The notes under the pieces: generated by a model
Database searches by the model: none
Told to the model about the DNA's origin: nothing
The model's input: the letters and a program-made list of their open reading frames with translations, nothing else
Program-made: the position numbers and the translations under genes
Shown here: positions 14,057-33,391 of the stretch, in pieces
Layout of the letters: every line of letters starts with the position of its first letter
Position numbering within the stretch: the first letter of the stretch is position 1
DNA from: Vicinamibacteria bacterium
GTDB lineage: Bacteria > Acidobacteriota > Vicinamibacteria > Vicinamibacterales > CAVVIG01
DNA: 38,699 nucleotides
Assembly: GCA_041484265.1 (NCBI GenBank)
Contig: JBGPHH010000003.1
Location: forward strand, 1 to 38,699
Reading direction: 5' to 3'

Positions 14057-15658
14057 ATGGACTCGAGATTCGATGTCGTGATTGCAGGCGGCGGGCTCGC
14101 CGGCCTGACGCTGGCCAGACAGCTGCACTTCGAGGCTCCCCACGCGCGGGTGCTCGTGTGCGAGAAGCGCCGACACCCGGTGCCGGAAGCGGCCTTCAAA
14201 GTCGGTGAGTCATCGGTCGAGATCGGCGCGCACTACTTCAAGACCATCGTCAAGCTCGACGCCCTGCTCGAGCGCGATCACCTGCCGAAACTGGGTCTGC
14301 GTTACTTCTTCCCGTACGAGCACAACCGCGATATCACCACGCGCGTCGAGCTCGGCACCAACGTCTTCCCGCCGGTGCCGTCGTTCCAGCTCGATCGCGG
14401 ACGCCTCGAGAACTCGTTGCTGACGCTGGCCCGCGAGTCGGGCGCGTCCGTGCTCGACGGCTGTGCGGTGCGTGAGATCGATCTGGGCGACCGCGAGCAC
14501 AGGGTAGTGGTCGACACCGCCGACGGTCCGCACACGGTCACCACGAGATGGATCATCGATTCGAGCGGACGCGCGGGTCTGCTGAAGAGGAAGCTCGGGC
14601 TAAGGCGTCCGTCTTCGCATGCCGCCAATGCCTGCTGGTTCCGCTTTCCAACCCGGCTCAAGGTGGACGACTGGTCGGACGATCCCGTCTGGTGCGCGCG
14701 CGTACCCGAACGTCAGCGCTGGCTGAGTACGAACCATTTGATGGGGGCGGGCTATTGGGTGTGGCTCATTCCCCTCGGGTCGGGCAGCACGAGCGTTGGG
14801 ATCGTGGCCGACCCGGCGCTGCACCCGTTTCACCGACTCAGTCGTTTCGATCGCGCGGTCGACTGGCTGCGTGAGTTCGAACCGCAGTGCGCCGATGTCG
14901 TCGAGGCGCACGCACCGCAGCTCGAAGACTTTCTGGCGCTTCAACACTTCGCGCACGGCTGCGAGCGCGTCTTCTCCCCCAATCGCTGGGCCATGACCGG
15001 AGAGTCCGGCGTCTTCACAGACCCGTTCTATTCGCCAGGGTCCGACTTCATCGCGATCGGCAACGACTTCGCGACTGATCTGATCATCCGCGACCTCGGC
15101 GGCGAAGACGTGCGCGAGCGGGCCGAGATCTTCAACGCCACGCACCTGCGATTATTCGACGCCTTTCTGAAGCTGTACGACGGCCAGTATCCGCTGATGG
15201 GCAATGCACAGGTCATGACAGCCAAGGTGGCCTGGGACAACGCGTCGTACTGGAGCGTCACGGCCCTGCTCTTCTTCCAGCGCCGGCTGCGGCGTCCGGA
15301 GTTCATGGCGTCGATCGATCCGCTGATGCGCCGGTTCTTCGTGCTGCACGCGCGCATGCAGCAACTGTTCGCGGCGTGGGGCCGTACCGACCATGCCTCA
15401 TATGGGTACTCGCGCGCCAACGTGATGGATGTCGAGCGGCTGCGGCACCTGCAGGCCAGTCTGGACGGCCCGATCATGGACGACGACGCGCTCCGCGAGC
15501 GGCTGGAGCGTAACTACCTCTGGCTGGAATCGATGGCACGCGCGTGGCAGCGGCTTGCGGCCGAGCACGACCCAGCGCTGACGCGGTTCGTCGCCCCTGG
15601 CGATGCCGAATACGTGGACCTGGAGCCGCTGAAGCTAACGCACTGCATAGCAGATTGA
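14057..15658 (+). CDS. Flavin-dependent halogenase-like FAD oxidoreductase
   Basis: GGGLAG FAD motif, KVGES, FQLDRGRLE, YWVWLIP (WxWxIP halogenase motif), FTDPFYSPGSD. Confidence 0.8.
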   Translation: MDSRFDVVIAGGGLAGLTLARQLHFEAPHARVLVCEKRRHPVPEAAFKVGESSVEIGAHYFKTIVKLDALLERDHLPKLGLRYFFPYEHNRDITTRVELGTNVFPPVPSFQLDRGRLENSLLTLARESGASVLDGCAVREIDLGDREHRVVVDTADGPHTVTTRWIIDSSGRAGLLKRKLGLRRPSSHAANACWFRFPTRLKVDDWSDDPVWCARVPERQRWLSTNHLMGAGYWVWLIPLGSGSTSVGIVADPALHPFHRLSRFDRAVDWLREFEPQCADVVEAHAPQLEDFLALQHFAHGCERVFSPNRWAMTGESGVFTDPFYSPGSDFIAIGNDFATDLIIRDLGGEDVRERAEIFNATHLRLFDAFLKLYDGQYPLMGNAQVMTAKVAWDNASYWSVTALLFFQRRLRRPEFMASIDPLMRRFFVLHARMQQLFAAWGRTDHASYGYSRANVMDVERLRHLQASLDGPIMDDDALRERLERNYLWLESMARAWQRLAAEHDPALTRFVAPGDAEYVDLEPLKLTHCIAD

Positions 15659-15669
15659 AGATGCCAGCG

Positions 15670-16890
15670 TCAGTTCCCGAAGGCTCGGATCACGAGCGCC
15701 GAGTCGTTCCCCCCGAATGCCAGCGAGGTCGAGACGCCACACCGCACGCGCTGTTCGCGTGCGGTGTTGGCCACGATGTCGATCGCGCAATCGGGATCGG
15801 TCTCGCCGTGATGGATCGTCGGCGGAATCACGCCGCGGGCAACCGTCAACGTCAGGGCCGCGGCCTCGACGGCTCCGGCTGCGCCAAGGCAGTGACCGAT
15901 CATGGCCTTGAGAGAGGTCACCGGCACGCGTGCGATGCGCTCGCCGAAGATGCGCCGGAACGCGCGCGCCTCCGCCGCATCGTTCTGCGGCGTCGCCGTC
16001 CCATGCGCGTTCAGATGATCGACGTCGGCAGCGGCGAGGCCCGCGTCCTGCAGGGCCGCCGCAATCACGGCGGCCACGGGACGGCCTTCCGGCTCCGGAG
16101 CCGTCGGATGATAGGCCTCGCATCCCAGCGCAAATCCGGCGAGCTCGGCGTAAATCCGAGCGCCCCGGCGGCGGGCGCGATCGAGATCCTCGAGCACGAG
16201 AATCCCGGCGCCTTCGCCGATGTTCATGCCGGCGCGGGTCCGATCGAAGGGGCGACACGGCGCCTGATCCATCAGCTTCAGTTGATTGAATCCGCTGAAC
16301 GTCAGGCGGGCGAGCGCGTCGGTGCCGCCGGCCAGGACGGCGTCGGCCCGGCCCTGCCGGATGGCGTCGGCGGCGCGTCCGATCGCGATCGTGCTCGACG
16401 AGCAGGCGGCCACGACGCAGGCACGAGGACCCTCGAAGCCGAAGCGTTCGGCGATCAGGTCAACCGGCGTGCTGAGAAAATGATTCCAGACATCGGACGG
16501 GCGCGCCCGCTCGATGCCCTCTGCCATCCACGTCTGGTAGAAGACCTCATTGCGCAGCAGGTCTGCGGTGCCTGCTCCCAGAAAAATCCCGACCCGCGCG
16601 GCGTCGACGCCCCCATCCTGTAATCCCGCGTCGTCTATCGCCTCGGCCGCTGCGTGCAGACCGATGCGATCGCCTCGGGATAGACGACGCCGCTCGAGCG
16701 CGGTGAGCGATGCGTCGATGTCCCGCATCGGGACTTGGGCCGCGATCCGGCTGCGATACCCCTCGGCATCGAACACCGTCGCCGGACCGATCCCGCACTC
16801 GCCCGCAACCATGCGGCGCCACGACTCTTCACGCGTGGCGCCGAGCGCGGTCACGAGACCGATGCCGGTGATGGCAACACGGGGCGTCAT
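15670..16890 (-). CDS. Beta-ketoacyl-ACP synthase (FabF-like, catalytically intact KS)
   Basis: Cys-His-His triad in AACSSS, NAHGTAT and IGHCLGAAG; CRPFD; GEGAG; SLAFGG. Confidence 0.93.
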   Translation of the reverse strand: MTPRVAITGIGLVTALGATREESWRRMVAGECGIGPATVFDAEGYRSRIAAQVPMRDIDASLTALERRRLSRGDRIGLHAAAEAIDDAGLQDGGVDAARVGIFLGAGTADLLRNEVFYQTWMAEGIERARPSDVWNHFLSTPVDLIAERFGFEGPRACVVAACSSSTIAIGRAADAIRQGRADAVLAGGTDALARLTFSGFNQLKLMDQAPCRPFDRTRAGMNIGEGAGILVLEDLDRARRRGARIYAELAGFALGCEAYHPTAPEPEGRPVAAVIAAALQDAGLAAADVDHLNAHGTATPQNDAAEARAFRRIFGERIARVPVTSLKAMIGHCLGAAGAVEAAALTLTVARGVIPPTIHHGETDPDCAIDIVANTAREQRVRCGVSTSLAFGGNDSALVIRAFGN

Positions 16891-16906
16891 CGTTGCGCGT
16901 GCACGG

Positions 16907-19852
16907 TTATCGCAGGGGCTTCAGGATCAGAATCTGGAGATTATACGACCCGACCGTCTGATATCGGGCCGGCAGCAGGCTCCTGCCGAAGTCGGCACGG
17001 AGGATCGTATTCTTGGGCGCCCGGAAATTGACCGCGATGCCGAGCCCGGTAATCGGCTGCCAGCTGGCGTCGATCGAACGGTCACGGCCCCAGGCCCGCT
17101 CGAGGAAGAGGTCGAGCCGATACTGCTCGAGAATGTTCAGGGAGTAGGAGGCCCGCGCCATCGCCAGGTCGCCGAAGCGGACGCCGGACGCCGGCACGCC
17201 GTGGATGCGGGTGTCATCGAAGAGCCCGAACTGGTACTTGGAGAATCGATCGAGGTCGTTCCCGCCGAACCAGGCACCGTTCAGATGAATCTTCTGGAAC
17301 ACATTGAAATAAAAGTCGCGTGACAAACTGGCGCTGTACTTTTCATAGCTCTGCTGTTTCGAGCTGTCCGGGAGCGTACCGTCGGAGGCCGACGGCGTGC
17401 CCCACGCACGCCACGTGACCCGACCAAACCGGGTGCCGCTCAGGAGCAGGCTGTACCCGCCGCGCCGGTACTCCCACGACAGGCCGGTTCCGTTGGTCAC
17501 GGTGCTCGACGGAAGCGTAAACGCGTCGCTCGTGGTCGTGTCGTGCACGAAGGCGTCGAAACGGAACTGATACTGCGCGGTCACCTTCTGAAACGGCGTG
17601 TACTGCCATCCGACGTTGAGGCCGGTCGACAGCGGCCAGGTCAGCACGCGCTCGCCCTGACGCTCGGCCGTCGCGTCGTAGATCCGATCGCTCGACGGCA
17701 CGCCGATGCCAAAGAAGTCGACGCTGGCGTCAAACGGCGTCGACCCGAGCTTGGGCCGCTGAATATTCCCGGCGGCCAGCACGCCGGCAAAGAGCAGCGC
17801 GAGCTGCGAATTGGGCCCGCCGAAATTGAAGTCGAGGTAGTTGATCCCAAAGATAGGCAGCGGGAACGCGTACGAAGGATCGAGCGTCACGCCCATGGCC
17901 ATCGCCCTGGCTCTTTGCGTGGCGCCGTCGCTCGTCACGCGCGCCCCGCCCTCCTTCACGTAGTAACGCAAACCTCGATCGGTCTCGCGGAACATGATCC
18001 GGTCGCTCGACCGCGCCGCGCCCCGTTGCGCCTCGAAGTCGGTCTCGTTCACGTGCACCTCCTCGAACGTGACGCTCTTCTCGACAAGCAGATTGCGCCC
18101 GGCAATCAGCATGATCTGTCGTGCGGTGAGACGGCTCAGCAGATGCACCGGCTGGCCGTTGACCATCACCGGCGGCGCGTACTCCTGAATCTCCTCATTC
18201 GAGACCACCGGGGCGGGCAGTCCACTCTGTACGGCTTGAACGCGGATGCGCGCGAAGGTCTGCCGATCGATCCAGACGGTGCCGCGGTAAAGCGACGGGT
18301 CGCTCCTGACCGGCTCGAACCGTACGACGTAGCAGTCGTATCCGGCGACGCGGTCGCTGCCGTCCAGGCGATACCGGTACCCCTCGTCGAACCGCAGCTG
18401 CAGGGGCAATGACAGCACCTTCTCCGGCTGCAGCAGCGGAAACGGCGGTCGATCGGCTCCCCAGCGCGACCCGTTGACCGAGAAGGACAGCTCCTCCCAC
18501 TCCACCTCGGTCCCTGCCACGAAGTACCGGTTTTCGCTGACGACGTCGTAGCCGGGATCGGCGGCCGTGGGACGGAAATGCTGCTCCATCCGGGCGTGTG
18601 CGACGTAGTTCCGCACGAGCCCATCCTGCACGCGCTGACGCGCCTGGTGACGGGCGATGATCTCATCGACCGACAGGCCGCGGTCGGCCGTCACGCGGCT
18701 GCGCTCGCCGAACACGTCGATCGCACCGCGACTGAAATCAAACAGCATGGGTCCGCCGGAGAGCGGTGCACGCAGGCGCGTCGTGCGTGTCGAGGCATCA
18801 CGGGAGAATCCCTCGACCGCTCGCTCGGCGCCGGCCATCAGGTCGTACACGACCGGCGTGCCCTCGATGGTGAGCCGAATCGAAACATCGAGCGGCTCAG
18901 CGCGCCCGTCTCCCCAGTACGCGAGCAAGGTACCGAACGTCTGGTTGTCGAAGAGTAGTCGGTGCGGGATCGTGCGGCTGGCATCGGCCCCATCCACCGA
19001 CAACCGCAGGGCCGCGGCCGAATCTTCCAGGTCCGCGACGTCGTGTGTCAGCAGGATCGCGACCGGCGCCACCGCCTGAAGGGACGGGACCAGCGCCTCG
19101 TCGCCGACGCAGGCGAAGAGTGCGACCTTCGAGCCCGCGAACCGCAGGATCGCGTCCGTCACCGCCCGCTTGCTATCGGCGATACCCGGCCCGGTGGCCA
19201 GCGTCACGACCAGCGCGGCGGTCGGGTCCACCCGCGAGAGCCACGCGGCCGAACGCTCAGCCTCGGCGGCTGGAATTGACAACAGATCGACGTACGGCGC
19301 CAGATCGCCGGTGTAGATCTCGGAGCGACTGACTTCGCTCACCATCCGGTCGCCGCCGATGGCGACGCGGATCGCGGCCCCCGTCGTCGCGCGCGCTTCG
19401 GTGGACGCGAGCCGCACCGCGTACGTCGCAAGCGGCGCCGGCTGATCGCCGACGATGATTTCGAGGATCGTCAGCGCGGCTGCGTGGCGGGCCAGAATCT
19501 GACCGAGCGTAACGCGCCACGCTTCGACGTCTTCCACGCGGGCCGGGGCGGGCACAGCGAGCCAGATCGGTATCTGACGGCCGGCCAGTTCCGTCAACGA
19601 CTCATCGAGCCCGGAGCCGGTCTCGAGTCCGGACGCCCCGGAAGCAACGACCCGGACGGCGACTCTGAAGGGTAATGTTCCCGCCTCCTCGAGAATCCGG
19701 GCGGCCGTTGTCGCAGCGCCGGCCTCAATGGCGATGCGCACGGGAACGGTCTCGCTGCCGGGCCCTCGCTGGCCGAACGCGAACGAGGCCGAGCCCGCAA
19801 TCGCGCTCATCACGACCGTGAGCGCGAAGCAGGCGGCAGGACGGAGGCTCAC
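16907..19852 (-). CDS. Large secreted/outer-membrane protein (~980 aa): unknown N-terminal domain, LolA/RseB-like middle, probable C-terminal beta-barrel
   Basis: GTG 19852 overlaps the deacetylase stop; signal-peptide-like N-terminus. YRYRLDG..RVAGYDCYVVRFEP...RGTVWIDRQTFARIRVQ resembles lipoprotein-sorting folds. The C-terminal ~330 aa show aromatic/alternating beta-strand patterns. Confidence 0.6.
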   Translation of the reverse strand: MSLRPAACFALTVVMSAIAGSASFAFGQRGPGSETVPVRIAIEAGAATTAARILEEAGTLPFRVAVRVVASGASGLETGSGLDESLTELAGRQIPIWLAVPAPARVEDVEAWRVTLGQILARHAAALTILEIIVGDQPAPLATYAVRLASTEARATTGAAIRVAIGGDRMVSEVSRSEIYTGDLAPYVDLLSIPAAEAERSAAWLSRVDPTAALVVTLATGPGIADSKRAVTDAILRFAGSKVALFACVGDEALVPSLQAVAPVAILLTHDVADLEDSAAALRLSVDGADASRTIPHRLLFDNQTFGTLLAYWGDGRAEPLDVSIRLTIEGTPVVYDLMAGAERAVEGFSRDASTRTTRLRAPLSGGPMLFDFSRGAIDVFGERSRVTADRGLSVDEIIARHQARQRVQDGLVRNYVAHARMEQHFRPTAADPGYDVVSENRYFVAGTEVEWEELSFSVNGSRWGADRPPFPLLQPEKVLSLPLQLRFDEGYRYRLDGSDRVAGYDCYVVRFEPVRSDPSLYRGTVWIDRQTFARIRVQAVQSGLPAPVVSNEEIQEYAPPVMVNGQPVHLLSRLTARQIMLIAGRNLLVEKSVTFEEVHVNETDFEAQRGAARSSDRIMFRETDRGLRYYVKEGGARVTSDGATQRARAMAMGVTLDPSYAFPLPIFGINYLDFNFGGPNSQLALLFAGVLAAGNIQRPKLGSTPFDASVDFFGIGVPSSDRIYDATAERQGERVLTWPLSTGLNVGWQYTPFQKVTAQYQFRFDAFVHDTTTSDAFTLPSSTVTNGTGLSWEYRRGGYSLLLSGTRFGRVTWRAWGTPSASDGTLPDSSKQQSYEKYSASLSRDFYFNVFQKIHLNGAWFGGNDLDRFSKYQFGLFDDTRIHGVPASGVRFGDLAMARASYSLNILEQYRLDLFLERAWGRDRSIDASWQPITGLGIAVNFRAPKNTILRADFGRSLLPARYQTVGSYNLQILILKPLR

Positions 19853-20727: not shown

Positions 20728-20999
20728 GCGGGCTCTGTGCTGCCCTGCGCTCTAATGTACTCAGCGATGGCATCGACCGAGCGCAGCACCTTCATCCCGG
20801 TCTCTTCGTCTCGGATCGCGACGCCGAACGAACGCTCGATCTCCAGTACCAGTTCCAGCACGTCGATGGAGTCGAGCCCGAGGCCGCCCTCGAACAACGG
20901 GGTCGCATCGCCTATTTCTTCCCAGGCGATGGGAAGCCGGAGGCTGCGCACGATACCCTGTTTGATCTGCACCTTCAGCGGGTCAGCCGTTTCTGTCAT
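20724..20999 (-). CDS. Acyl carrier protein (aryl-polyene-type ACP)
   Basis: PLFEGGLGLDSIDVLEL with the phosphopantetheine Ser; acidic, ~91 aa; alternative GTG start at 21002. Confidence 0.92.
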   Translation of the reverse strand: MTETADPLKVQIKQGIVRSLRLPIAWEEIGDATPLFEGGLGLDSIDVLELVLEIERSFGVAIRDEETGMKVLRSVDAIAEYIRAQGSTEPA

Positions 21000-21013
21000 C
21001 ACGCGTTCCTATG

Positions 21014-22970: not shown

Positions 22971-22978
22971 GGCCGCGT

Positions 22979-25223: not shown

Positions 25224-27668
25224 ATGTCCGCAATCGTGGCCTGGGCGCATCGCCACCGCGCGCTCGTGGTCGGTCTGGTGCTCGGCGCGCTGGTCGGCGC
25301 TATCGCCGGCGCGCGGCGGCTGACCTTTGACGCCGACGTGCTGTCGCTACTGCCGCGCGACAGCGCCGTCGTTCAGTCCTTCCGCCAGTTTCTCGCCCGC
25401 TTCGGAAGCCTGGATCAACTGTACGTGGTGTTCACCGCGCCCGAAGGGCATGCGGTCTCGGAGTACAACACCGAGATCAACCTGTGGGTCGACCGCCTTC
25501 GATCGGCTCCTGAGATAGCCCGTGTCGATGCGGGCGTCGCCGACCGCACGCGTGACTTTGGCTGGCTCGCCGACCGTCAGCTGCTCGTGTTGCAGGGGCG
25601 CTCGCTCGACGAGGCGCTGCGGCGACTGCGACCGGAAGGCATGGGAAACGCCGTGGCCGCCAGGCGCGAGCTGCTGACCGTACCCTCGACGGACGTCGCC
25701 GAACTGATCCGTCAGGACCCGGCCGGACTCTTCGATGTCTTGCGCGACGCACTCGGGGGCGCACAGGCCGGCTCCATGCTCGGCGTGTCCGAGAACGGCT
25801 ACGTGACGGCGGACGGCCACAGCCGGCTGGTGATCGCGCGGCCCAAGAGGCCGCCCTACGACGCGGCGTTTTCGCGAGCGCTCGACGCCCGGCTGCGCGA
25901 GATCCAAACGTCGATGCGCTCGAGCGGCGCGACGCCGCACGAGAGCGACGCCGACTCGTTGCCGCCGCTCACCGTGGTGTTCGCCGGCGGCCATCGCATC
26001 GCGGTCGAGACGGAAGCCTTCGTCCGGCGAGAGAGCATCATGAATACGGTTGGATCGCTCGCCATGATCCTGCCCCTCTTGTTTGTCGTCTTCCGGAGTT
26101 TCTGGCTGGTCGTGGTCGGCTCGCTCCCGTCGGCGCTCTCCCTCGTCATGACTCTTGGCGTGCTCGGATTCAGCGGCGCGCGGTTGTCGGCTGCGGCGAC
26201 CGGCGCCGCCGCGATGCTCTTCGGTCTTGGTGTCGACGGCGTGGTGCTGCTGTACGTCGCCTATCGATCGGCGATTGCCGAGAACCCCTCGGCCGATGTG
26301 CCGGCAGCGATTTCCGGGCCATCCACCAGCATGCTCCTCGGGATGTGGACGACGGCCGCGACATTTTACGGATTGATCTTCGTCGACTTCCCCAGCCTGC
26401 AGCAGCTCGGTCTGCTCATCGGTCACAGCATGGTGTTCTGCGGCCTGCTGACGCTGGTGATGGTGCCGGCGCTCCTGCCGCGCCGCCCGCCCGTGCGACG
26501 CGTGCGGCCGTTGCGGATGCCAGGCGTCGCCGCGTGGATCGAGCGCCGCCACCGTGTTGTGCTCGTCGCCGCGCTCGTCTGCACCGCCGTCCTGGGCTAT
26601 TTTGCGACGCGCATCCGGATCGATCCGACCCTTGATCGCCTCCGCTCCACAACCGAGGCCGCGCAGCTCGAAACGAAGATCGGCACGGCGTTCGGTCTTC
26701 CGGGCGATGTGTCCGTCGTGTTGGCGGAGGGGCCGCAACTCGAAACGCTGCTGCAGACTAGTGAAGAACTGGCGCGGAGGCTCGAGGGCGAGCTTCCCGG
26801 CCTTGCGTTTGCGTCGCCGAGCCGGCTGCTGCCGTCGGCCGCGATGCAGGCACGCACGGCCGCGCACATTGCGCGAGCGGGACTCTCGCCGGCGACCGTG
26901 CGTCAGACCCTCGAAGCCGCCCGAGTCGCCAACGGGTTCACGCCGGGCGCGTTCGATCCGTTCGCGGCGCGGCTGCCGCGCCTCCTTGACGGCGATGCGC
27001 GAATCACGTACGACGGCTATGTGTCGCACGGGTTGCAGGATGTGATCGACCGGTTCGTGGTCCACGACGGGGATCGCTGGACGCTCGCCACCTATATCTT
27101 TCCGTCCTCCGATGCACAAGCGACGCGCATTCACGCCATCGTTGACGCCGTCGACTCCACGCAGTCACTCACGGGGCTGGCCCTGGTCAACCGTGAGCTC
27201 TCCCGGCTCTTTCTCCCGCAATTCATCCGAGGTCTCGTCATTGGCAGCGTCATCGTCATCCTGCTTGTTGTCGCGGCGTTCCGGGATGTGAAGCTCTCGT
27301 TCTTCGCGCTGCTCCCGACAGCGATCGGCCTCGTCTGGACCGTCGGCGCACTGGCCATCGCCGGCGTCGAGCTGGATCTGTTCGCCGTTTTTGCAGTCGT
27401 CACCCTCGTCGGGATCGGGGTGGACTACGGCGTCCATCTGGTCCACCGGTACCAGGAGCGCGGCGACGCGACGAGCGCCACGGCGGAGCTCGCACCGGTC
27501 ATTCTGATCGCGGCCGCAATTACGCTCCTTGGCTACGGCACGCTGGTCACGTCCTCGTACCCTCCGCTTCGGTCGATCGGCCTCGTGTCCACGGTCAGCG
27601 TGGTCGCGCTGGCGGTGGCGTCGGTGTGTGTGCTGCCGGCGTTGCTCCTCAGACACGCGCGGCACTGA
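25224..27668 (+). CDS. MMPL/RND-family lipid exporter
   Basis: Two TM repeats with GLGVDGVV and GIGVDYGVHL motifs, large periplasmic loops, FPSLQQLG and YPPLRSIG. Confidence 0.9.
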   Translation: MSAIVAWAHRHRALVVGLVLGALVGAIAGARRLTFDADVLSLLPRDSAVVQSFRQFLARFGSLDQLYVVFTAPEGHAVSEYNTEINLWVDRLRSAPEIARVDAGVADRTRDFGWLADRQLLVLQGRSLDEALRRLRPEGMGNAVAARRELLTVPSTDVAELIRQDPAGLFDVLRDALGGAQAGSMLGVSENGYVTADGHSRLVIARPKRPPYDAAFSRALDARLREIQTSMRSSGATPHESDADSLPPLTVVFAGGHRIAVETEAFVRRESIMNTVGSLAMILPLLFVVFRSFWLVVVGSLPSALSLVMTLGVLGFSGARLSAAATGAAAMLFGLGVDGVVLLYVAYRSAIAENPSADVPAAISGPSTSMLLGMWTTAATFYGLIFVDFPSLQQLGLLIGHSMVFCGLLTLVMVPALLPRRPPVRRVRPLRMPGVAAWIERRHRVVLVAALVCTAVLGYFATRIRIDPTLDRLRSTTEAAQLETKIGTAFGLPGDVSVVLAEGPQLETLLQTSEELARRLEGELPGLAFASPSRLLPSAAMQARTAAHIARAGLSPATVRQTLEAARVANGFTPGAFDPFAARLPRLLDGDARITYDGYVSHGLQDVIDRFVVHDGDRWTLATYIFPSSDAQATRIHAIVDAVDSTQSLTGLALVNRELSRLFLPQFIRGLVIGSVIVILLVVAAFRDVKLSFFALLPTAIGLVWTVGALAIAGVELDLFAVFAVVTLVGIGVDYGVHLVHRYQERGDATSATAELAPVILIAAAITLLGYGTLVTSSYPPLRSIGLVSTVSVVALAVASVCVLPALLLRHARH

Positions 27669-27670
27669 CC

Positions 27671-28342
27671 ATGCGGGCAGTCGCACTGATCCCGGCCTTC
27701 AACGAAGCGCACGCGATCGCCGACGTCGTCACGGGGCTGCGCGGCATCGTCTCGCACGTCCTGGTCGTGGACGATGGGTCGACCGACCAGACGGCGGAGA
27801 GAGCGCGGGCGGCAGGGGCGGAGGTCGTGTCGCACGAGTCGAACTGCGGAAAGGGCCAGGCGGTGCGGACCGGCCTCGCGCATGTCTTCGACGGCGATTT
27901 TTCGCACGTGCTGCTCCTCGACGGAGACATGCAGCATCGGCCGAGCGAGGCCGCGCGGCTGCTCGACGCCGCGGATCGGACCGGCGCCGATCTGGTGCTT
28001 GGCGAGCGGCAGTTCAGTCGCGAGCGCATGCCGGCGGCCCGCTATCACGCGAATCGGATCGGCAGCCGGGCTCTGTCGTGGTTCGTCGGCGCTCCCGTGC
28101 AGGACTCCCAATGCGGGTTCCGCGTGTGCCGGCTCGACGCGCTGCGACACCTGCCGCTCAGGGCGCGCGGCTACGACATCGAAACAGAGATGCTCGTGAA
28201 GCTCCGTCGGAAAGGTGCGCGGCTGGAGCGCATCCCGATCACGGCGGTCTATGCCGCCGAGCGCAGCAACCTTCGTCCGGTCCGCGATACGACGCGGACC
28301 TGTTTTCTGGCGGTGTACTATCGGTTCCTCGAACGCATCTGA
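27671..28342 (+). CDS. Glycosyltransferase family 2 (DPM-synthase-like)
   Basis: LIPAFNE, VVDDGSTD, NCGKGQA, LDGDMQH, DSQCGFR. Confidence 0.92.
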   Translation: MRAVALIPAFNEAHAIADVVTGLRGIVSHVLVVDDGSTDQTAERARAAGAEVVSHESNCGKGQAVRTGLAHVFDGDFSHVLLLDGDMQHRPSEAARLLDAADRTGADLVLGERQFSRERMPAARYHANRIGSRALSWFVGAPVQDSQCGFRVCRLDALRHLPLRARGYDIETEMLVKLRRKGARLERIPITAVYAAERSNLRPVRDTTRTCFLAVYYRFLERI

Positions 28343-28358
28343 CGAACCCGCGGGCACC

Positions 28359-29327
28359 GTGCCTGTGTCGCAGGAAGCGGCGCGTAGGACGATCGAGCCG
28401 CGCCGGTGGACGCTGCACGGCCTCAACAACGGCGCGATTTTCAGGACGACGTGCGCCGCCGTGCGCGTTCTGCCGAAAGCCGTGTCGTATGCGATCGGTG
28501 ACGGCGCCACCTGGGTGGCGTTCGGTCTCATGCCGGCGACGCGCGCGGCGATCGCAGACAACCTGCGGGCGGTGTTTCCGGAGGACTCCCCCCGAGCGCT
28601 CGAGCGCCGCGCCCGGCGAACATTACAAGCCTACGCGCGCGATACGATCGATTTCCTTCGCGCGCTCTCGCTCGACGGCGAGCGCGCGACGGCGCTGTTC
28701 GAGCCGCCGCCTGAGTATCTGCCGCGAATCAACCAGGTGCTCGCGCAGGGTCGCGGCGCGATTCTCGTCACCGGTCACTACGGCAATTGGGAGATTGGCA
28801 GTGTGCTCATGAGCCGGGTGCTGCACCTGCCTCTGGCGATCGTCGCCATGGCCGAGGCGAGCGCGGACGTAAACCGGCGGCGACGGGAGATCCGCGATCG
28901 GCTGGGCGTCGATACCATCGAGGTCCGCCAATCCCTCGACACCGCCCTGCAGATCCGGCGGCGGCTCTCCGACAACGGCATCGTCGCGATGTTGATGGAT
29001 CGGCACCTGGGTCGGGATCGCGTGCAGGTGACGCTGCTCGGGCGACCGGCCTGGTTCCTGCGGACGCCGGCACTGATGGGGTACCTGTGTGGCGCACCGC
29101 TGATGCCCTGCTTCATCCAACGCACGGAGGGCCACCCCCCCTTTTCGTGCCTTCTCGGAGATCCGATCGTGGTGGCGACCGATCGACCGCGCGACGAAGC
29201 CATTCAGCAGGCCACGCAGCAGTTTGCGGATCAGTTGAGCGCGCGCATCCGGCAGCACCCCGAGTACTGGTATCAGTTCTATCGATACTGGGATGCGCAG
29301 CAGGATTCGTACGAAGGGCTCGCCTGA
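28359..29327 (+). CDS. Lysophospholipid / lipid A lauroyl-type acyltransferase (LpxL/HtrB family)
   Basis: VTGHYGNWE (HxxxxE), LMDR, IRQHPEYWYQFYRYW. Start approximate. Confidence 0.88.
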   Translation: MPVSQEAARRTIEPRRWTLHGLNNGAIFRTTCAAVRVLPKAVSYAIGDGATWVAFGLMPATRAAIADNLRAVFPEDSPRALERRARRTLQAYARDTIDFLRALSLDGERATALFEPPPEYLPRINQVLAQGRGAILVTGHYGNWEIGSVLMSRVLHLPLAIVAMAEASADVNRRRREIRDRLGVDTIEVRQSLDTALQIRRRLSDNGIVAMLMDRHLGRDRVQVTLLGRPAWFLRTPALMGYLCGAPLMPCFIQRTEGHPPFSCLLGDPIVVATDRPRDEAIQQATQQFADQLSARIRQHPEYWYQFYRYWDAQQDSYEGLA

Positions 29328-29342
29328 GGGCGGACATCCGTC

Positions 29343-30380
29343 ATGGACCCCATCTCACACGCGATCTTCGGACAAACGGTGGCGACGGCGCTCGGCCGAC
29401 AGGCGTCGCCCCTCCGGGGCCGCGTGATGGCCGGTGTCCTCGGTGCCCTCGCGCCTGACGCGGATGCCGTGTTGATGCCGTTCGGCTGGGACATCTACCT
29501 TCGCGCCCACGAAGTCGGCACGCACTCCCTCGCCGGTAGCGTTGCCGTCGCAGCTGCCGCCGCGCTCATCGCCCGCGCCTTTGCCCGCGATAGCCGGTCG
29601 TCCGACCTGTTCGCCGCGGCGTGGCTCGGTTGTCTCAGCCACATCGCGCTCGACCTCGTGTCGGGTGCGCGCCTCCAGATTGCGTGGCCGTTCGTGACGG
29701 GGCACGTCGGCCTGCCGCTCGTCGCGATGGCAGAGCCGTGGCTCCTGGCCATCTTCGCGGTCGGCGCGGTCGCGCTGGCGATGATGCGGCATCGCCCCCG
29801 CGGGACCGCTTTCGGCGTTGTTGCCGGCGTCGCGGCATTCCTTGGCGTGAAGGCGGTGCTGCTGGCACGCGCGCTGCCCGATTCAAGCGTGGTTTCGCGC
29901 ATCGAGCAGAGTCCGCTGCTCACGCGGATTGTCGAAGCGCGATGGGCGAGCCTGACCGAGTGGTACATGTTCGATCGCCGCGCGGACTCGTTGACCGAGT
30001 GGCAGATCGAGGCCGGACGGTCTCCGATCCTCCTGCTGTCATGGCCAGTGGTGGCGGACTCGCCCCTGGTCCACGACTCGCGCTCGCTCGGCACGGTGCG
30101 GAATTTTCTCGACGTGCACGAGGTCGCCTTCGCGGGCGAGATACCGGCTGGCGACGAGGGGTCGACGGTGCTCTGGTCCGATCTGCGATATTGCTGGCGG
30201 CCTGACGTGGCCGGCGGCGAGGCAAGCCCCGATCCGGTGTTCTCTGCGAGCACGCCGACTGGGCCGGCGCGAATCGCATGTGGGCTGTGGTTTGGCGGCG
30301 CCTTCGACCGGAAGGGCCGCGCGATTAGACAGCTTGTAAAGGTCGGTGGGTGGTGGCAGACGCGTGCGCCGGAACCGTAA
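29343..30380 (+). CDS. Membrane-bound metal-dependent hydrolase (YdjM/YbcI-like)
   Basis: MDPISHA, APDAD, HEVGTHSL, SHIALD, WPF. Confidence 0.8.
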   Translation: MDPISHAIFGQTVATALGRQASPLRGRVMAGVLGALAPDADAVLMPFGWDIYLRAHEVGTHSLAGSVAVAAAAALIARAFARDSRSSDLFAAAWLGCLSHIALDLVSGARLQIAWPFVTGHVGLPLVAMAEPWLLAIFAVGAVALAMMRHRPRGTAFGVVAGVAAFLGVKAVLLARALPDSSVVSRIEQSPLLTRIVEARWASLTEWYMFDRRADSLTEWQIEAGRSPILLLSWPVVADSPLVHDSRSLGTVRNFLDVHEVAFAGEIPAGDEGSTVLWSDLRYCWRPDVAGGEASPDPVFSASTPTGPARIACGLWFGGAFDRKGRAIRQLVKVGGWWQTRAPEP

Positions 30381-31485
30381 CCCGGAAGAGCACGTTGGCG
30401 AACGGCGTGCCCGCACCCATCGGCCGCACCTCTCCCGCCAATCCATGCGAGGCGAAACAGGCGAGCCACTCGTCGGGCGTGCGGAAATGAAACCGCTGTC
30501 GCCAGCGACCAAACGCTAGCGCCTTCACCCTGTTTCCAAGACGCAGGACGGCGAACCGCCAGCCGCCAGACGCGTCGGCTTCACGGATGAGCACCACACC
30601 GCCGGGTTCGAGCGCAGCAGAGACGGTCGCCAGGAGCGCTTCCTGCTCGTGGACCCGCAGCAAATGCAGCACGTCGAAAAGCAGCACGGCTCGGCACGGC
30701 CCGATATCCGCCGTGCGAGCGTCGCCATGCACGATGGTGGCGTCCGATCCAAGCGCCTCCCGTGCTACGGCGGCGGGACGCGACCGCGTTTCGATGCCGA
30801 TCAGGCGGTCGAACTGAGGCGGCCGATTCCAGCCGGCTGGCCAGAACCCCTTGCTGTACCTCGCTCGTGCCTCGGCGAGCATTGCCAGCGCCAGTCCGCC
30901 GCCGCAGCCAATGTCCACGAGCGTGCCGCCAGAAGGCAGCAGCGCTCCGCAGACTGTCGCTCGATACAGTGGGTCGCCACGCAGTTTGCCGCGTGCGAAC
31001 TCCCAGGCGGTAATGCTCGCCGTCGTATAGCGATCCGACGCGTCGTGCACCAGATCGAGGAACACGGCATCGTTCACGGTTCCCCGGATCGAGAGGTACG
31101 TGACCAGCCCGAGCGCCGCACCGAGCGTCGCGCCGAGCGCCAGGCTGCCGGCGAGAATGTCGAGGGCGAAAACGGACAGGTCGGTGGTCTTCGCGGTCTG
31201 CAGCGTCAGCGCGTGAAAGGCCCCGCGCCGGAGCCAGGCGCCGGTCTGCAATTCAGTGAAGAGCAGCGTAGGCGCGACGAGGGGATTCGAAATGTTTGCA
31301 GCGAGATAGGTCTTCAGCCGGTTCAATCCGAACAGCCAGCCGGTGATCCAGCACAGCAGCAGGTGGAAGCCGTAGAACGGCAGACACCCGATGAAGAACC
31401 CGACGCCGACGGCCGTGGCCTCGCGGCCAGCGCCCGCGCCCTCCGTGCGAAGGCCGTAAAACAACCGTCGAACGGTTGCGCGCAT
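30325..31485 (-). CDS. DUF2062 membrane domain fused to a class I SAM-dependent methyltransferase
   Basis: N-terminal VGFFIGCLPFYGFH...LNR...ANISNP (DUF2062); C-terminal KLRGDP, LVDIGCGGG, FDVLHLL, LEPGG. Confidence 0.8.
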   Translation of the reverse strand: MRATVRRLFYGLRTEGAGAGREATAVGVGFFIGCLPFYGFHLLLCWITGWLFGLNRLKTYLAANISNPLVAPTLLFTELQTGAWLRRGAFHALTLQTAKTTDLSVFALDILAGSLALGATLGAALGLVTYLSIRGTVNDAVFLDLVHDASDRYTTASITAWEFARGKLRGDPLYRATVCGALLPSGGTLVDIGCGGGLALAMLAEARARYSKGFWPAGWNRPPQFDRLIGIETRSRPAAVAREALGSDATIVHGDARTADIGPCRAVLLFDVLHLLRVHEQEALLATVSAALEPGGVVLIREADASGGWRFAVLRLGNRVKALAFGRWRQRFHFRTPDEWLACFASHGLAGEVRPMGAGTPFANVLFRVTVPAHASATTHRPLQAV

Positions 31486-31506
31486 CGCGTCATTGTGCCA
31501 TGCGCG

Positions 31507-31917
31507 TTAACTCGCGAGCGTCAGGCTGCCGGACGCGACGAGCCGACCGTCGGCGGTGACCTCGCCTTCGATCTTGATCAAACGTCCCAGCCTGCCGACG
31601 ACGCGCGCGCGCGCCTCGAGGACTTCGCCGGGGCCCGCCGCAGCAGGGAACTTGCAGGGACCGATTCCCGCGATGTGCAGCGCCACCGGCGTGGCCTCGT
31701 CAAACGCGCTGGCCGCGGCGATGCCGCCGGCCTGTGCCAGCATTTCCACCAGAATCACGGCGGGCACCACGGGCCGGCCGGGAAAGTGGCCCTGAAAATA
31801 GAAGTCGTCTGCGGCGGCCGTTCGTCGTCCGACGGCGCTCACTCCGGGCGTGACGTCAGTCACAGCCTCCAGCAGCCGCATCGGCGGGTGATGCGGAAGT
31901 CGATCGAGCCATGTCAT
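31507..31917 (-). CDS. 3-hydroxyacyl-ACP dehydratase (FabZ/FabA hot-dog fold)
   Basis: LPHHPPMRLL, FQGHFPGRPVVPAVILVEMLAQ (His/Glu catalytic pair). Confidence 0.9.
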   Translation of the reverse strand: MTWLDRLPHHPPMRLLEAVTDVTPGVSAVGRRTAAADDFYFQGHFPGRPVVPAVILVEMLAQAGGIAAASAFDEATPVALHIAGIGPCKFPAAAGPGEVLEARARVVGRLGRLIKIEGEVTADGRLVASGSLTLAS

Positions 31918-31928
31918 CGCGGGGCCAC

Positions 31929-31936
31929 AGTATACT
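31929..31936. promoter_or_regulatory. Palindromic bidirectional -10 element AGTATACT between the divergent dehydratase and AMP-ligase genes
   Basis: TATACT on both strands, 9 and 11 nt from the two start codons, in a 28-nt intergenic gap with no SD sequence. Confidence 0.5.
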
Positions 31937-31945
31937 TTCCAGCTC

Positions 31946-33391
31946 GTGAAGGCCATCGTCGATCGGTTCGCCGGCGTCCGCCGCAGCGATCCTCAGCGAC
32001 CCCTCATCCATCTGCCCACCACGAATCGGACGCTGACGGCATCCGACGTCGACGACCGCTGTCGGCAGTATCAGCATCTGCTCGCGTCGATGGGCATCGA
32101 GGCCGGCGACCTGGTGCTGTCTGCGAGCGGCAACCGCGCTGGAACCTTTCCCCTTCTGCTCGCCTGTTGGACGATCGGTGCCCCGGTTCTTCCGGTCGAC
32201 GGCGCGACGCCCATCGCCGAGGTGCTCGAGCTCGCCGAGCAGTTCCATGCGTCAGCCGTCGTGGTGCCGACAAGGGTGGCCGACGGATCGAGTGTTCGAC
32301 CGCTCGACCATGAGCTGTCGGTGCTTTCGCGGGATGCGTCGCCCGACCCGTCGTATCGCGGCGCGGCACTCCTGAAACTGACATCCGGATCGACCGGTGT
32401 GCCCAAGGCCGTGCTCGCGACGGAGGTGCAGCTGGTAGCCGACACCGAACACCTCGTGTCCGCGATGGGTATCACCGCCGCTGACGTGCAGCTGGCGGCC
32501 ATTCCACTCTCGCATACATACGCGTTCGGGACGCTCGTGATGCCACTGCTGCTCCAAGGGACGTCGATCGTGCTCCGCGAGTCGTTCGTGCCGCAGGAGC
32601 TTGTGGCCGACGCCCGGCAGTATGGGGCGCGGGCGTTTCACGGCGTGCCATTCATGTATCAACACTACCTCGCGCATCCGCCGGCCGGCGGCTGGCCGCC
32701 CACGCTGACGCTCCTGGTATCTGCGGGCGCCCGCCTCGCACTCGAGACCGTCCGCGGCTTTTACGAGCGTTTTGGCCTGAAGATCCACTCGCTCTACGGC
32801 ACGACTGAAACGGGCGGCATCACGTTCGACACCGACGACGATCGGGACGATGTGCCCACGGTCGGCCGGCCACTATCAGAAGTAACGATCGACCTGCGGC
32901 CGGACGCGGGCGTGCCCCCGGGGCACGGCCGCATCCACGTGCGCGGCCCGGCCGTGTGTCCACGATATGTCGGCGACGCCGCTGAGAGCGGCGAACTGAG
33001 CGTCGGAGGCTTTCTGACAGGCGACTACGGGCGCCTGCTCGCTGACGGCCGGCTCGTCCTGGCCGGCCGCGTGTCGTCGTTCATCAATGTCGCGGGACGC
33101 AAGGTGCAGCCGGGTGAGGTCGAGCGCGTCTTGCGAGAAATGGACGGCGTCGCCGATGCGCGAGTGTTGGCAGCCACCGACGTGGCGCGCGGGGAACAGG
33201 TCACGGCAGTCGTCGCCGGACCGCCCGGCCTGACACTCGCAGCGGTCCGGCAGCACTGCACCCGCCGGCTGGCGGCGTACAAGATCCCGAGAATCGTGGT
33301 GGTCGTCGACCGGTTGCCACTGACGTCCAGGGGGAAAACGGACTACCGCGCGCTCGATGCGCTCGTGAGAGCGCACCGGACAGTTCAATAG
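31946..33391 (+). CDS. Adenylate-forming acyl-CoA/acyl-ACP ligase (probable starter-loading enzyme)
   Basis: LTSGSTGVPK, YGTTETG, GFLTGDYG, GR..FINVAGRKV.P.EVE, LPLTSRGK. Confidence 0.9.
   Translation: MKAIVDRFAGVRRSDPQRPLIHLPTTNRTLTASDVDDRCRQYQHLLASMGIEAGDLVLSASGNRAGTFPLLLACWTIGAPVLPVDGATPIAEVLELAEQFHASAVVVPTRVADGSSVRPLDHELSVLSRDASPDPSYRGAALLKLTSGSTGVPKAVLATEVQLVADTEHLVSAMGITAADVQLAAIPLSHTYAFGTLVMPLLLQGTSIVLRESFVPQELVADARQYGARAFHGVPFMYQHYLAHPPAGGWPPTLTLLVSAGARLALETVRGFYERFGLKIHSLYGTTETGGITFDTDDDRDDVPTVGRPLSEVTIDLRPDAGVPPGHGRIHVRGPAVCPRYVGDAAESGELSVGGFLTGDYGRLLADGRLVLAGRVSSFINVAGRKVQPGEVERVLREMDGVADARVLAATDVARGEQVTAVVAGPPGLTLAAVRQHCTRRLAAYKIPRIVVVVDRLPLTSRGKTDYRALDALVRAHRTVQ

Follow-up and report, generated by a model that had tools for sequence, protein, structure and literature searches.

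A conserved gene cluster of Vicinamibacteria predicted to make a specialised lipid for the outer membrane

The locus described here raises the question of what is made by a compact run of ketosynthase, glycosyltransferase, lipid-transport and radical S-adenosylmethionine (SAM) genes in an acidobacterium, and whether this run belongs to the aryl polyene (APE) family. It lies on contig JBGPHH010000003.1 of the Vicinamibacteria bacterium assembly GCA_041484265.1. The window, i.e. the whole stretch of DNA that was analysed, is 38,699 nucleotides long and equals this entire contig of a 4.05 Mb genome that is 72 % complete. A first-pass annotation had placed a non-canonical aryl polyene/flexirubin-like cluster at 14057-33391. 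In the present analysis the region 14057-36128 is read, with a probability of about 0.6, as one conserved gene cluster of the class Vicinamibacteria for a specialised envelope lipid that would be delivered to the outer membrane.

Gene content and conservation of the cluster

Eighteen genes, delimited by Pfam and NCBIfam scans together with codon-position GC, tile 14057-36128, and with the starts chosen they are separated by at most about 115 bp. All 15 functions listed by the first-pass annotation were located inside 14057-33391 by the Pfam and NCBIfam scans, but the boundary it had set at 33391 did not hold, as the unit continues to 36128 and includes a radical SAM gene resembling tetraether synthase (Tes). 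Since the G+C content of the window is 65 %, long spurious open reading frames (ORFs) are frequent, and the genes of the family 2 glycosyltransferase (GT2) and of LolA were recognised only by codon-position GC analysis because longer spurious ORFs overlie both. Most of the NCBIfam scores given here are below the curated cut-offs. The genes, with E-values of the family matches, are as follows.

14057-15658, forward: halogenase-like flavoprotein, 533 aa (Pfam Trp_halogenase 3.8e-08, DAO 2.1e-09; NCBIfam CmlS 1.4e-16)
15670-16890, reverse: predicted active ketosynthase (KS), FabF-like, 406 aa (Pfam ketoacyl-synt 5.5e-43 and 2.5e-33)
16907-19852, reverse: secreted fusion protein, 981 aa, in a large ORF open to 20014 (Pfam MucB_RseB 1.6e-06, LolA_like 7.9e-05)
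19849-20727, reverse: carbohydrate esterase family 4 (CE4) polysaccharide deacetylase with DUF3473 (Pfam 8e-21 and 4.2e-22)
20724-21002, reverse: dedicated acyl carrier protein (ACP) with a DSID motif (PP-binding 8.3e-09; NF006617 56.8 bits, cut-off 70)
21014-21772, reverse, ORF open to 21820: FabG-type ketoreductase (KR) (adh_short_C2 3.8e-67; FabG subfamily NF009466 258 bits, cut-off 222)
21756-22988, reverse: KS-like partner of chain-length factor (CLF) type (ketoacyl-synt 7e-26)
22995-23672, forward, ORF open from 22911: periplasmic LolA-family carrier with an Arg-rich, signal-like N-terminus (Pfam LolA 1.1e-12; strand assigned by codon-position GC)
23656-25134, reverse, ORF to 25233: B12-binding radical SAM enzyme (B12-rSAM) of class B, HpnR-like, 492 aa (B12-binding 8.6e-16, Radical_SAM 1.3e-11)
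25224-27668, forward, ORF open from 25143: MMPL/HpnN-like lipid transporter of the resistance-nodulation-division (RND) type (MMPL 3e-25; HpnN TIGR03480 3.8e-40, under its NCBIfam cut-off)
27671-28342, forward, ORF open from 27626: GT2 (Glycos_transf_2 2.3e-20)
28359-29327, forward, ORF open from 28215: LpxL/PatA-type acyltransferase (Lip_A_acyltrans 1.6e-30; top NCBIfam match PIM acyltransferase NF005919, 126.5 bits, cut-off 209)
29343-30380, forward: YdjM-family membrane protein, putative metal-dependent hydrolase (Pfam YdjM 5.8e-23)
30325-31485, reverse: DUF2062 membrane domain fused to a SAM-dependent methyltransferase (DUF2062 5.3e-15, Methyltransf_23 2.1e-10; no match in a PDB search)
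31507-31956, reverse: FabZ-type 3-hydroxyacyl-ACP dehydratase (DH) (1.3e-25; NF000582 90 bits, cut-off 113; best PDB matches FabZ proteins, top 3d6x at 2.7e-18)
31946-33391, forward: AMP-forming ligase, probable starter loader (AMP-binding 1.9e-48; top NCBIfam match long-chain-fatty-acid-CoA ligase NF004837, 208.6 bits, cut-off 476)
33385-34092, reverse: MddA/ICMT-like membrane methyltransferase (PEMT 4.9e-09; MddA NF045656 134.6 bits, cut-off 270)
34206-36128, forward: Tes/GDGT-MAS-like radical SAM enzyme, 640 aa (Radical_SAM 5.8e-20 and an HMPTM zinc ribbon)

Start and stop codons overlap at GTGA (19849-19852), where the GTG start of the fusion protein at 19852 overlaps the CE4 stop, and at ATGA (20724-20727). 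Since two starts overlap the preceding stops, the row CLF-KR-ACP-CE4-fusion protein-KS fits one operon. No enoyl reductase (ER), ammonia-lyase, thioesterase or DarAB family was found among the 18 cluster genes, in agreement with the first-pass annotation, the rest of the genome not having been searched for them.

The gene order recurs in all six relatives compared at ±20 kb (G004, G005, G008, G270, G123 and G330). Eleven genes stand in the same order in every one of them, namely those of the KS, fusion protein, CE4 deacetylase, ACP, KR, CLF, LolA, MMPL transporter, GT2, acyltransferase and YdjM protein. The DUF2062-methyltransferase gene is present in G004, G005, G270 and G123 and was not found in G008, and the Tes-like gene comes directly after the ligase gene in G004, G005 and G008. 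The dispersal of the genes in relatives, which the first-pass annotation had named as telling against a common unit, is thus not what is seen. The MddA/ICMT-like methyltransferase gene lies within the cluster here, yet is absent between the ligase and Tes-like genes of G004, G005 and G008, and a 64 % identical copy is found on another contig (C232) of the same genome; this gene is not conserved with the cluster.

The distribution of the cluster was followed by the fusion protein, for which an alignment search in species-representative genomes yielded 257 confirmed loci. Of these, the best 80 come from metagenome-assembled genomes labelled Vicinamibacteria, Vicinamibacterales, Luteitalea, Acidobacteria gp6 or Acidobacteriota, with the exception of two labelled Bifidobacteriaceae, one Proteobacteria and one "uncultured bacterium". 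Among the named loci, 58 had at least 9 kb of flank on the relevant side, and there the CE4 gene was found in 45, ACP in 50, KR in 43, CLF in 50, LolA in 50, B12-rSAM in 31 and MMPL in 46. Sixty-three loci had at least 4 kb on the other side, and in these the KS gene was present in 55 and a halogenase-like gene stood beside it in 25. Because the order recurs in all six relatives and in most of the 58 named loci, the grouping of these genes is more than chance.

Among 400 other genomes of the class, an ortholog of the fusion protein (at least 43 % identity) occurs in 47, including all 12 genomes of one family (f18), and about 30 further genomes carry a 29-33 % paralog covering the LolA-like and barrel parts. 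The distribution is patchy: the fusion protein was not found in G001, the one same-genus genome within the class sample, and the B12-rSAM was not found in either of two same-genus genomes. In the phylum sample the CLF was found at 45 % identity or more in four of 300 other genomes, all of the same order; the identity column alone was used here, as the search at E≤1e-30 was too lax because it also picked up FabF. The phylum tallies for the CLF and for the Tes homolog (below) include genomes G188, G063 and G086. The genome samples and the named loci were drawn from the same collection and overlap, so that their counts are not independent.

A second cluster type seems to exist beside the one described. 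In eight of the 58 loci, including L111, the fusion protein stands beside only distant versions of the KS, ACP, ligase and GT2. In the class sample, three contigs (G357:C13, G663:C3 and G692:C1) carry distant paralogs of the fusion protein (31-33 %, LolA-like and barrel parts only) 10-14 kb from a B12-rSAM of their own (47-50 %).

Nine public sequencing runs of DNA, labelled sediment metagenome, contain parts of the stretch. Their contigs over 17000-36999 are short: one, from a run that may be the source of the assembly, extends over 26444-34724, another, of 507 bp and from a different study, over 33749-34255, and no listed metagenome contig covers the whole of 17000-36999. At 29252-29348, which comprises the 3' end of the acyltransferase gene and the spacer before YdjM, contigs from three to four of these runs differ from the window in the same way, by four substitutions and by the loss of one base (29337), the lost base lying outside the called reading frames.

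Chain assembly and the relation to aryl polyene loci

The KS retains the Cys, His and His motifs (ACSSS, HGTAT and GHCLGAAG), and its partner has EASGL, ANATR and GESGVSG at the same places, the motif positions being those that we take to be catalytic in FabF. As Cys and both His are all replaced, the partner is regarded as a CLF-type protein and the KS as the one active enzyme of its kind. The description of the locus as a type II (ACP-dependent KS/CLF) lipid cluster with a single active KS, a single ACP (one PP-binding protein) and a single DH (one FabZ-type protein) was therefore borne out.

By NCBIfam the KS scores 391 bits with the fabF model TIGR03150, against a cut-off of 494. Its top PDB match is 9s5h_B (311 bits, 8e-92), FabF proteins score 258-291 bits, and the APE enzymes are much further away, with 177 bits for 7f27 (ApeR) and 159 bits for 7f28_B, a chain of ApeO-ApeC. 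The best match of the CLF-like partner is 6kxd (134.8 bits), an ishigamide polyene KS that leads a FabF by a mere 0.3 bits, and 9s5h_C comes third with 125.3 bits. Entry 9s5h, the code of which was not found in the literature, would be the anammox amxFabF2/amxFabFmut heterodimer, to judge from the accessible text of a preprint (10.64898/2026.05.19.726425).

These matches bear on the proposal of the first-pass annotation, i.e. that the cluster belongs, as a non-canonical member, to the aryl polyene/xanthomonadin/flexirubin group and that its product is an outer-membrane pigment, a polyene glycolipid with halogen and/or C-methyl groups. In the part of a preprint available to us (10.1101/2020.12.19.423268), the APE core consists of two KSs (ApeO with the CLF ApeC, and ApeR), two ACPs (ApeE and ApeF) and two DHs (ApeI and ApeP), and the chain of APE lipids is esterified to an N-acetylgalactosamine-phosphate-glycerolipid; APEs are described as outer-membrane lipids in the available portion of PMC13532178. 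With these systems the locus shares a CLF, a KR and an MMPL protein, a KS/CLF, KR and DH set with no ER, and an AMP-ligase, GT2, LpxL-type acyltransferase, LolA and methyltransferase, and the flavoprotein with its halogenase motifs would also suit the proposal, as would the ishigamide match of the CLF-like protein. Against it stand the single KS, ACP and DH: next to one active KS and one CLF-like protein there is no third KS gene in 14057-36128, and next to one PP-binding and one FabZ-type protein no coding space is left. Judged by bit scores, the KS lineage also differs, as the KS scores 311 and 290 bits with amxFabF2 and FabF and far less with ApeR and ApeO. Finally, Pfam and NCBIfam scans revealed no ammonia-lyase, chorismate-derived or other aryl-acid starter gene and no thioesterase gene within the cluster.

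On these sequence grounds the cluster is not a member of the aryl polyene family, though it is similar in lay-out, and the proposal as a whole is judged unlikely. What survives of it is the anchoring and export plan, with a GT2, an LpxL/PatA-type acyltransferase, MMPL and LolA; membership of the aryl polyene/flexirubin family does not, given one KS, ACP and DH, a KS nearer to FabF and no aryl-starter gene in the cluster. The polyene product is not upheld either, since it had been drawn solely from the absent ER, which the house fatty acid synthase (FAS) could supply. In the portion of a metagenome study available to us (PMC8692599), acidobacterial "arylpolyene" clusters were scored as very distant from known ones, a result that speaks for the proposal, and genome-mining papers may have counted the present cluster as "arylpolyene". 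No characterised cluster of the same exact composition was found in a literature search, and no description of the cluster was found in the searchable literature, subscription papers and supplements being outside that scope.

The top KS match brings in another possibility, namely a ladderane-like pathway in which the B12-rSAM would cyclise the chain made by KS and CLF, as proposed for anammox Cluster I. Like that cluster, the locus has a KS with a catalytically dead KS paralog, each matching a chain of 9s5h, and the set of ACP, FabZ, KS, inactive KS, flavoprotein and B12-rSAM is the same; similar clusters were noted in Deltaproteobacteria in the accessible part of PMC2649909. The enzymes that would distinguish such a pathway are different here, however. 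The B12-rSAM scores 66.7 bits with the ladderane-context family TIGR04072 (cut-off 360), the flavoprotein resembles halogenases and not phytoene dehydrogenase, so that neither a TIGR04072 enzyme nor a phytoene-dehydrogenase homolog is present, the DH and ACP are closest in the PDB to ordinary FabZ and ACP proteins, and the B12-rSAM is absent from 27 of the 58 loci. A ladderane-like product is accordingly regarded as very improbable. A wider likeness to anammox genes was sought and rejected, the DH and ACP being nearest to ordinary proteins and the methyltransferase being without a PDB match.

Tailoring genes, the fusion protein and the flanks of the cluster

The sole PDB match of the Tes-like protein is 7tol, GDGT-MAS (5.3e-62, residues 90-583 versus 33-515). 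The homology extends over nearly the full length, and CNMMCDPC of the Tes-like protein is aligned to CNLNCPIC of GDGT-MAS, with CX3CX2C kept. The product of 34206-36128 is a tetraether-synthase paralog, for which C-C coupling of lipid tails end to end is predicted from its sequence.

Tes homologs are widespread in the phylum, with matches at E≤1e-40 in 177 of 301 genomes, mostly at about 60 % identity, and the host genome itself has a second copy, 64 % identical and cut by the end of contig C286. A quick maximum-likelihood tree (34 rows) unites the four copies linked to the cluster in a single clade (SH-aLRT 98) and places the C286 copy among those of its own family and order; five rows, two of them from genomes flagged unpublished (L025 of G188 and L028 of G063), are sister to the cluster clade. 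The paralog (at least 63 % identity, E≤1e-270) was found in 27 of the 400 other class genomes, and all 27 are among the 47 that have the fusion protein. In 20 of the 27 a single contig carries both genes at a distance of 3-18 kb, and in the other seven they are split over contigs. The Tes paralog thus belongs to the cluster.

Three observations concern the Tes genes themselves. At one locus of G005 (L016; G005:C12, about 111100-115100) a cluster-type and a common-type copy stand in tandem, the second being 89 % identical to the C286 copy; many genes there are in several pieces, which suggests a frameshift-rich assembly. In a genome of another family of the phylum (L073; G257:C37, about 50700-55000), a Tes-like gene of the sister clade adjoins an AMP-ligase (31 %) and a GT2 (42 %) gene, with no KS/CLF within ±20 kb. 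In all four sediment-metagenome runs that were aligned to the window, the summed contig depth rises 3- to 10-fold at 34342-35008 and 35676-36342, two conserved parts of the Tes-like gene. This rise is probably due to Tes homologs of other organisms matching at 95 % or more, which would then be abundant in these sediments.

The characterised relative of Tes joins terminal sp3 carbons of saturated lipid tails. Because the Tes link is conserved, an alkyl chain with a free terminal methyl is favoured over an aryl head; a paralog of an enzyme that couples saturated tail ends, absent from an aryl-capped chain, also argues against the APE proposal. No activity of any bacterial Tes homolog is reported in the available text of PMC8941075, PMC13159169, PMC10087280, PMC13274423 or PMC13459092.

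The closest solved structure to the B12-rSAM is 9ccb (8.7e-12), named QCMT in the accessible part of PMC12931638, and the best named family is HpnR (TIGR04367, 204.7 bits, 2.1e-60, cut-off 650). The source names attached to its close homologs indicate Vicinamibacterales, within the Acidobacteriota. The label of a hopanoid C-3 methylase was nevertheless rejected. Squalene-hopene cyclase (TIGR01507) was above its cut-off in none of five cluster-bearing genomes (four of them 96-100 % complete, the host genome 72 %), and cultured subdivision 6 strains had no hopanoids and no shc according to the portion available of PMC5462960. On these two grounds the substrate of the enzyme is taken to be a non-hopanoid. 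Orthologs (at least 61 % identity) are present in 20 of the 400 class genomes; the cluster is present in 19 of the 20 and the Tes paralog in 17, while ten class genomes have the Tes paralog without the B12-rSAM. In ten named clusters a Tes paralog was nearby in 5/5 with the B12-rSAM (at 79-81 % identity) and in 1/5 without it. Their distribution in the class sample and the named loci indicates that both radical SAM genes are accessory modules, nearly exclusive to the cluster and usually found together.

Such a pair could mean that the main task of the cluster is the making of membrane-spanning lipids of the iso-diabolic acid or branched glycerol dialkyl glycerol tetraether (brGDGT) type, the Tes paralog coupling iso-branched tails, the B12-rSAM adding mid-chain methyls and the other genes supplying or placing the precursor. 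The frequent Tes homolog of the phylum, of which the cluster copy is a paralog, and the joint occurrence of the two genes in 17 genomes are in line with this, and so are reports of iso-diabolic acid from subdivision 6 (PMC13159169 and PMC13274423, in the parts available); the tail-coupling and C5/C6-methylation enzymes of Acidobacteria are not named in the available text of PMC8941075, PMC13159169, PMC10087280 and PMC13274423. However, since the cluster occurs in only 47 and the Tes paralog in only 27 of the 400 class genomes, it cannot be the general route to iso-diabolic acid or brGDGTs, for the bulk of which the common Tes copy of about 60 % identity is the natural candidate. Furthermore, no ether-forming gene (Ger/PlsA/Elb) was seen in the cluster by Pfam and NCBIfam scans, and the coupling of ordinary membrane fatty acids needs no dedicated KS/CLF/ACP set. 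This role is therefore thought rather unlikely.

The flavoprotein contains GGGLAG (GxGxxG) and WVWLIP (WxWxIP), the latter being typical of flavin-dependent halogenases. Of its 13 PDB matches, 12 are halogenases (CmlS, PltA, ChlB4, PltM, tetracycline 7-halogenase, RadH and others) and one is an unassigned flavoprotein. Lys78 is aligned to a Lys in CmlS and 3nix, in a column that we presume to be that of the catalytic Lys. The motifs of a flavin-dependent halogenase (GxGxxG, WxWxIP and the Lys) are thus all present, and on its sequence the protein is fairly called halogenase-like, as the first-pass annotation had it. A geranylgeranyl-reductase-type enoyl reducer was also considered (TIGR02032, 60 bits, cut-off 159) and was rated less likely than a halogenase on account of the WxWxIP motif and the PDB matches.

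The export end of the cluster holds its most unusual protein. The first-pass annotation had read the 981-aa ORF as LolA-like; a LolA-like domain is indeed present, but the ORF encodes a fusion of it with a glycosidase-like barrel, a beta-sandwich and an Omp85-type beta-barrel, behind a signal-peptide-like N-terminus. An AlphaFold2 model of a 937-residue construct, built with 44 orthologs, has a mean pLDDT of 85.9 and would comprise the following parts, all on the reverse strand.

about 19720-19028: PslG-like (beta/alpha) barrel, construct residues about 1-231
19006-18728: beta-sandwich, residues 239-331
18670-18050: LolA-like half-barrel domain, residues 351-557, where the Pfam LolA_like and MucB_RseB matches fall
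17995-16913: Omp85-type beta-barrel of 16-17 strands, residues 603-936

In Foldseek the barrels of BamA, TamA and CdiB were matched at 1.6e-10 to 1e-8 with probability 1.00, and the N-terminal part matched PslG at 1.6e-08. The 16-stranded barrel typical of the Omp85 superfamily is thus present in the model; no Pfam Omp85 or ShlB match was obtained even at E≤1, and no POTRA domains were found. No invariant or near-invariant Glu occurs in residues 1-331 among the 44 orthologs, so that a working glycosidase is doubtful and the N-terminal domain may only bind sugar. A protein-atlas look-up returned at high score only acidobacterial hypothetical proteins, and Gemmatimonadota Omp85-family clusters at 0.79, as a lead only; in the data examined the family is confined to Acidobacteriota. 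When fusion-protein residues 345-600 (44 rows) were predicted in complex with free LolA (40 rows), the score was 0.14 against a mark of 0.32, a value that tells neither for nor against such a contact. From the model, we infer that the export route would end in the outer membrane with the fusion protein, its own LolA-like domain serving as receiver, and the joining of a LolA-like domain to an Omp85-type barrel suggests a new way of placing a special lipid in the outer membrane.

The same protein can be read as a polysaccharide-handling pore of the outer membrane, in a cluster whose task would be to attach lipid to, or to anchor, a polysaccharide of the cell surface; a sugar polymer or its primer would then receive the acyl chain from the ACP. 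The PslG-like N-terminal part and the GT2 would fit this, as would the CE4 deacetylase, which is nearest to the XrtA-system family TIGR03006 (208.9 bits by NCBIfam, cut-off 276), and the ligase, which has a weak match to the exosortase-associated TIGR03098 (123.5 bits, cut-off 592). On the other side, the 22 kb contain no polymerase, flippase, Wza/Wzc-type or further glycosyltransferase gene, LolA, the LolA-like domain and MMPL are lipid handlers, and the glycosidase-like domain is without a conserved catalytic Glu. A polysaccharide role is hence held improbable.

Outside the cluster, the most conspicuous genes form a module of porin-cytochrome type on the reverse strand at 3735-9205. An outer-membrane barrel similar to MtrB/PioB (3735-5894, 3e-86) is accompanied there by a multihaem cytochrome whose CXXCH motifs are paired (5854-6816), by a protein in which cytochrome b is joined to a c-type domain (6813-8444) and by another cytochrome c (8741-9205). 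This composition suggests extracellular electron transfer in this acidobacterium. A sigma-54 activator is encoded at 2274-3317. Two small adjacent genes upstream of the cluster (12864-13460 and 13405-13983) have weak Bax1-I and DUF6644 matches only, and the pair is repeated at four other sites of the genome (contigs C18, C22, C80 and C197; 42-49 % identity). Downstream lie a weak match to an outer-membrane protein beta-barrel (36148-36795), an ORF without family (36903-37421) and a spermidine-synthase-like protein (37432-38697) with three more copies in the genome. In G004, G005 and G008 the cluster is accompanied neither by the small membrane-protein genes found upstream here (12864-13983) nor by the genes found downstream (36148-38697).

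Proposed pathway and comparison with known systems

Taken together, the data are best accommodated by a pathway laid out as in APE loci, in which an alkyl lipid would be made, anchored to a sugar lipid and exported, with optional halogenation, methylation and Tes-type tail coupling; this scheme is given somewhat better than even odds. Each enzymatic step is assigned from family membership, and every substrate, the step order and the location of the product are deduced from it. The AMP-forming ligase would load a carboxylic-acid starter, most likely a fatty acid, onto the dedicated ACP, and the KS/CLF-like heterodimer with the FabG-type KR and the FabZ-type DH would elongate the chain, an ER, if used, coming from the house FAS. 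The GT2 and the CE4 deacetylase would prepare an amino-sugar lipid acceptor, to which the PatA/LpxL-type acyltransferase may transfer the acyl chain from the ACP, as in aryl polyene lipids. Transfer of the lipid to the outer membrane could then fall to the MMPL pump, to LolA in the periplasm and to the fusion protein with its LolA-like domain on an Omp85-type barrel. The chain may optionally be tailored by the flavin-dependent halogenase-type enzyme and the SAM methyltransferase. In roughly half of the clusters the Tes paralog is present and would link the ends of alkyl tails by a C-C bond, and the B12-rSAM would methylate unactivated carbons of these same tails or modify them in another way. 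The product is probably an alkyl rather than an aryl lipid.

Several observations weigh against this alkyl-lipid pathway. The curated models are not reached by its key enzymes: the Tes-like protein scores 318.4 bits with NF045702 (cut-off 450), and the other values are 205 versus 650 for HpnR, 391 versus 494 for fabF and 60 versus 900 for CmlS, all curated scores of the flavoprotein being far under their cut-offs. The PDB matches of the ligase are generic ANL enzymes and do not point to a particular starter acid, and with a KR and a DH and no ER in the cluster a polyene may be formed. A role linked to polysaccharide would likewise suit the PslG-like domain (in which no conserved Glu was found), the XrtA-type deacetylase and the GT2. 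Among the 47 cluster-bearing class genomes the Tes paralog is missing from 20 and the B12-rSAM from 28; the B12-rSAM occurs without a Tes paralog at the threshold in G592, G410 and G463 (the last 74 % complete) and, in G641 and G350, is found at a distance from the cluster. In 38 of the 63 loci no halogenase gene stands beside the KS. Since the Tes paralog and the B12-rSAM are often missing and the halogenase gene is often not next to the KS, the tailoring is not part of the core chemistry. In addition, a search of public sequencing runs revealed no RNA run containing the stretch.

A bolder form of the proposal would have an outer-membrane glycolipid with its fatty tails joined end to end by the Tes paralog and then methylated at unactivated carbons by the B12-rSAM, the B12 enzyme as the first candidate for mid-chain methylation of iso-diabolic acid/brGDGT chains, and the fusion protein as an Omp85-based lipid insertase with a LolA-like receiver of its own. 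It is put forward tentatively, its chances being low. If true, it would describe a bacterial, fatty-acid-based copy of the archaeal tetraether tailoring. If the product is instead an ordinary acyl glycolipid, what is left is a widespread new family of orphan clusters, and the names "hopanoid C-3 methylase" and "arylpolyene" would still stand corrected for this lineage.

Palaeothermometry makes wide use of iso-diabolic acid and brGDGT lipids. For the enzymes behind such lipids the cluster provides a Tes paralog paired with a methylase candidate, with natural presence and absence among close relatives, and in many Acidobacteria of soil and sediment it ties a Tes-family enzyme and a B12-rSAM genetically to a pathway of fatty-acid type. 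In the available parts of papers of 2022-2026 (PMC8941075, PMC13159169, PMC10087280 and PMC13274423), a Tes homolog is put forward as no more than a hypothesis for the enzyme that couples the tails in Acidobacteria. In the accessible text of a 2026 review (PMC13459092), radical SAM modification of lipids is almost entirely isoprenoid, ladderanes and jawsamycin being the sole proposed ketoacyl cases.

Among known systems, the APE loci of E. coli CFT073, Xenorhabdus doucetiae and Acinetobacter baumannii have in common with the cluster an ACP-dependent KS/CLF, KR and DH without an ER, as well as a starter loader of AMP-ligase type, a GT2, an LpxL-type acyltransferase, a methyltransferase, LolA and MMPL. 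Unlike them, the cluster has a single KS, ACP and DH, its KS is far nearer to FabF than to ApeR or ApeO, and it contains neither a thioesterase nor a DUF3261 protein; the CE4 deacetylase, YdjM, the LolA-Omp85 fusion protein, the halogenase-type enzyme, the B12-rSAM and the Tes paralog are found in the cluster only. The fusion protein itself differs from BamA, TamA and the two-partner-secretion proteins FhaC/CdiB in that a LolA-like domain, following a PslG-like barrel and a beta-sandwich, is present and POTRA domains are not.

With anammox Cluster I (amxACP, amxFabZ, amxFabF2/amxFabFmut, a phytoene-dehydrogenase homolog and a B12-rSAM; 10.64898/2026.05.19.726425, from the text available) the cluster shares a KS with a triad-less paralog, a private ACP and FabZ, a flavoprotein and a B12-rSAM. 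The related FASII-radical SAM clusters of Kuenenia, Desulfotalea and Geobacter also hold, according to the accessible part of Rattray 2009 (PMC2649909), a CoA-ligase, a glycosyltransferase, a deacetylase-like gene and a SAM methyltransferase. The available description of Cluster I lists no Lol, MMPL or Omp85 export genes and no Tes paralog, in contrast to the cluster studied here.

As to the radical SAM enzymes, HpnR is the best-scoring named family of the B12-rSAM, and some sources give that name to orthologous proteins. The cluster Tes, with a score under the NCBI Tes cut-off, stands as a paralog beside the Tes homolog that is common in Acidobacteria. In archaea, Tes and the B12-rSAMs Grs, Gmm, Cgm, Pgm and Ted act serially on the same lipid tails (preprint 10.1101/2025.10.20.683597, in the part available). 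The archaeal Tes/GDGT-MAS with Grs, Gmm, Cgm/Pgm and Ted, together with the bacterial Mss, offer the nearest parallel, as there too a Tes-family enzyme and a B12-rSAM are genetically tied to one lipid pathway; unlike the archaeal system, the cluster is bacterial, based on fatty acids and an ACP, and directed to the outer membrane.

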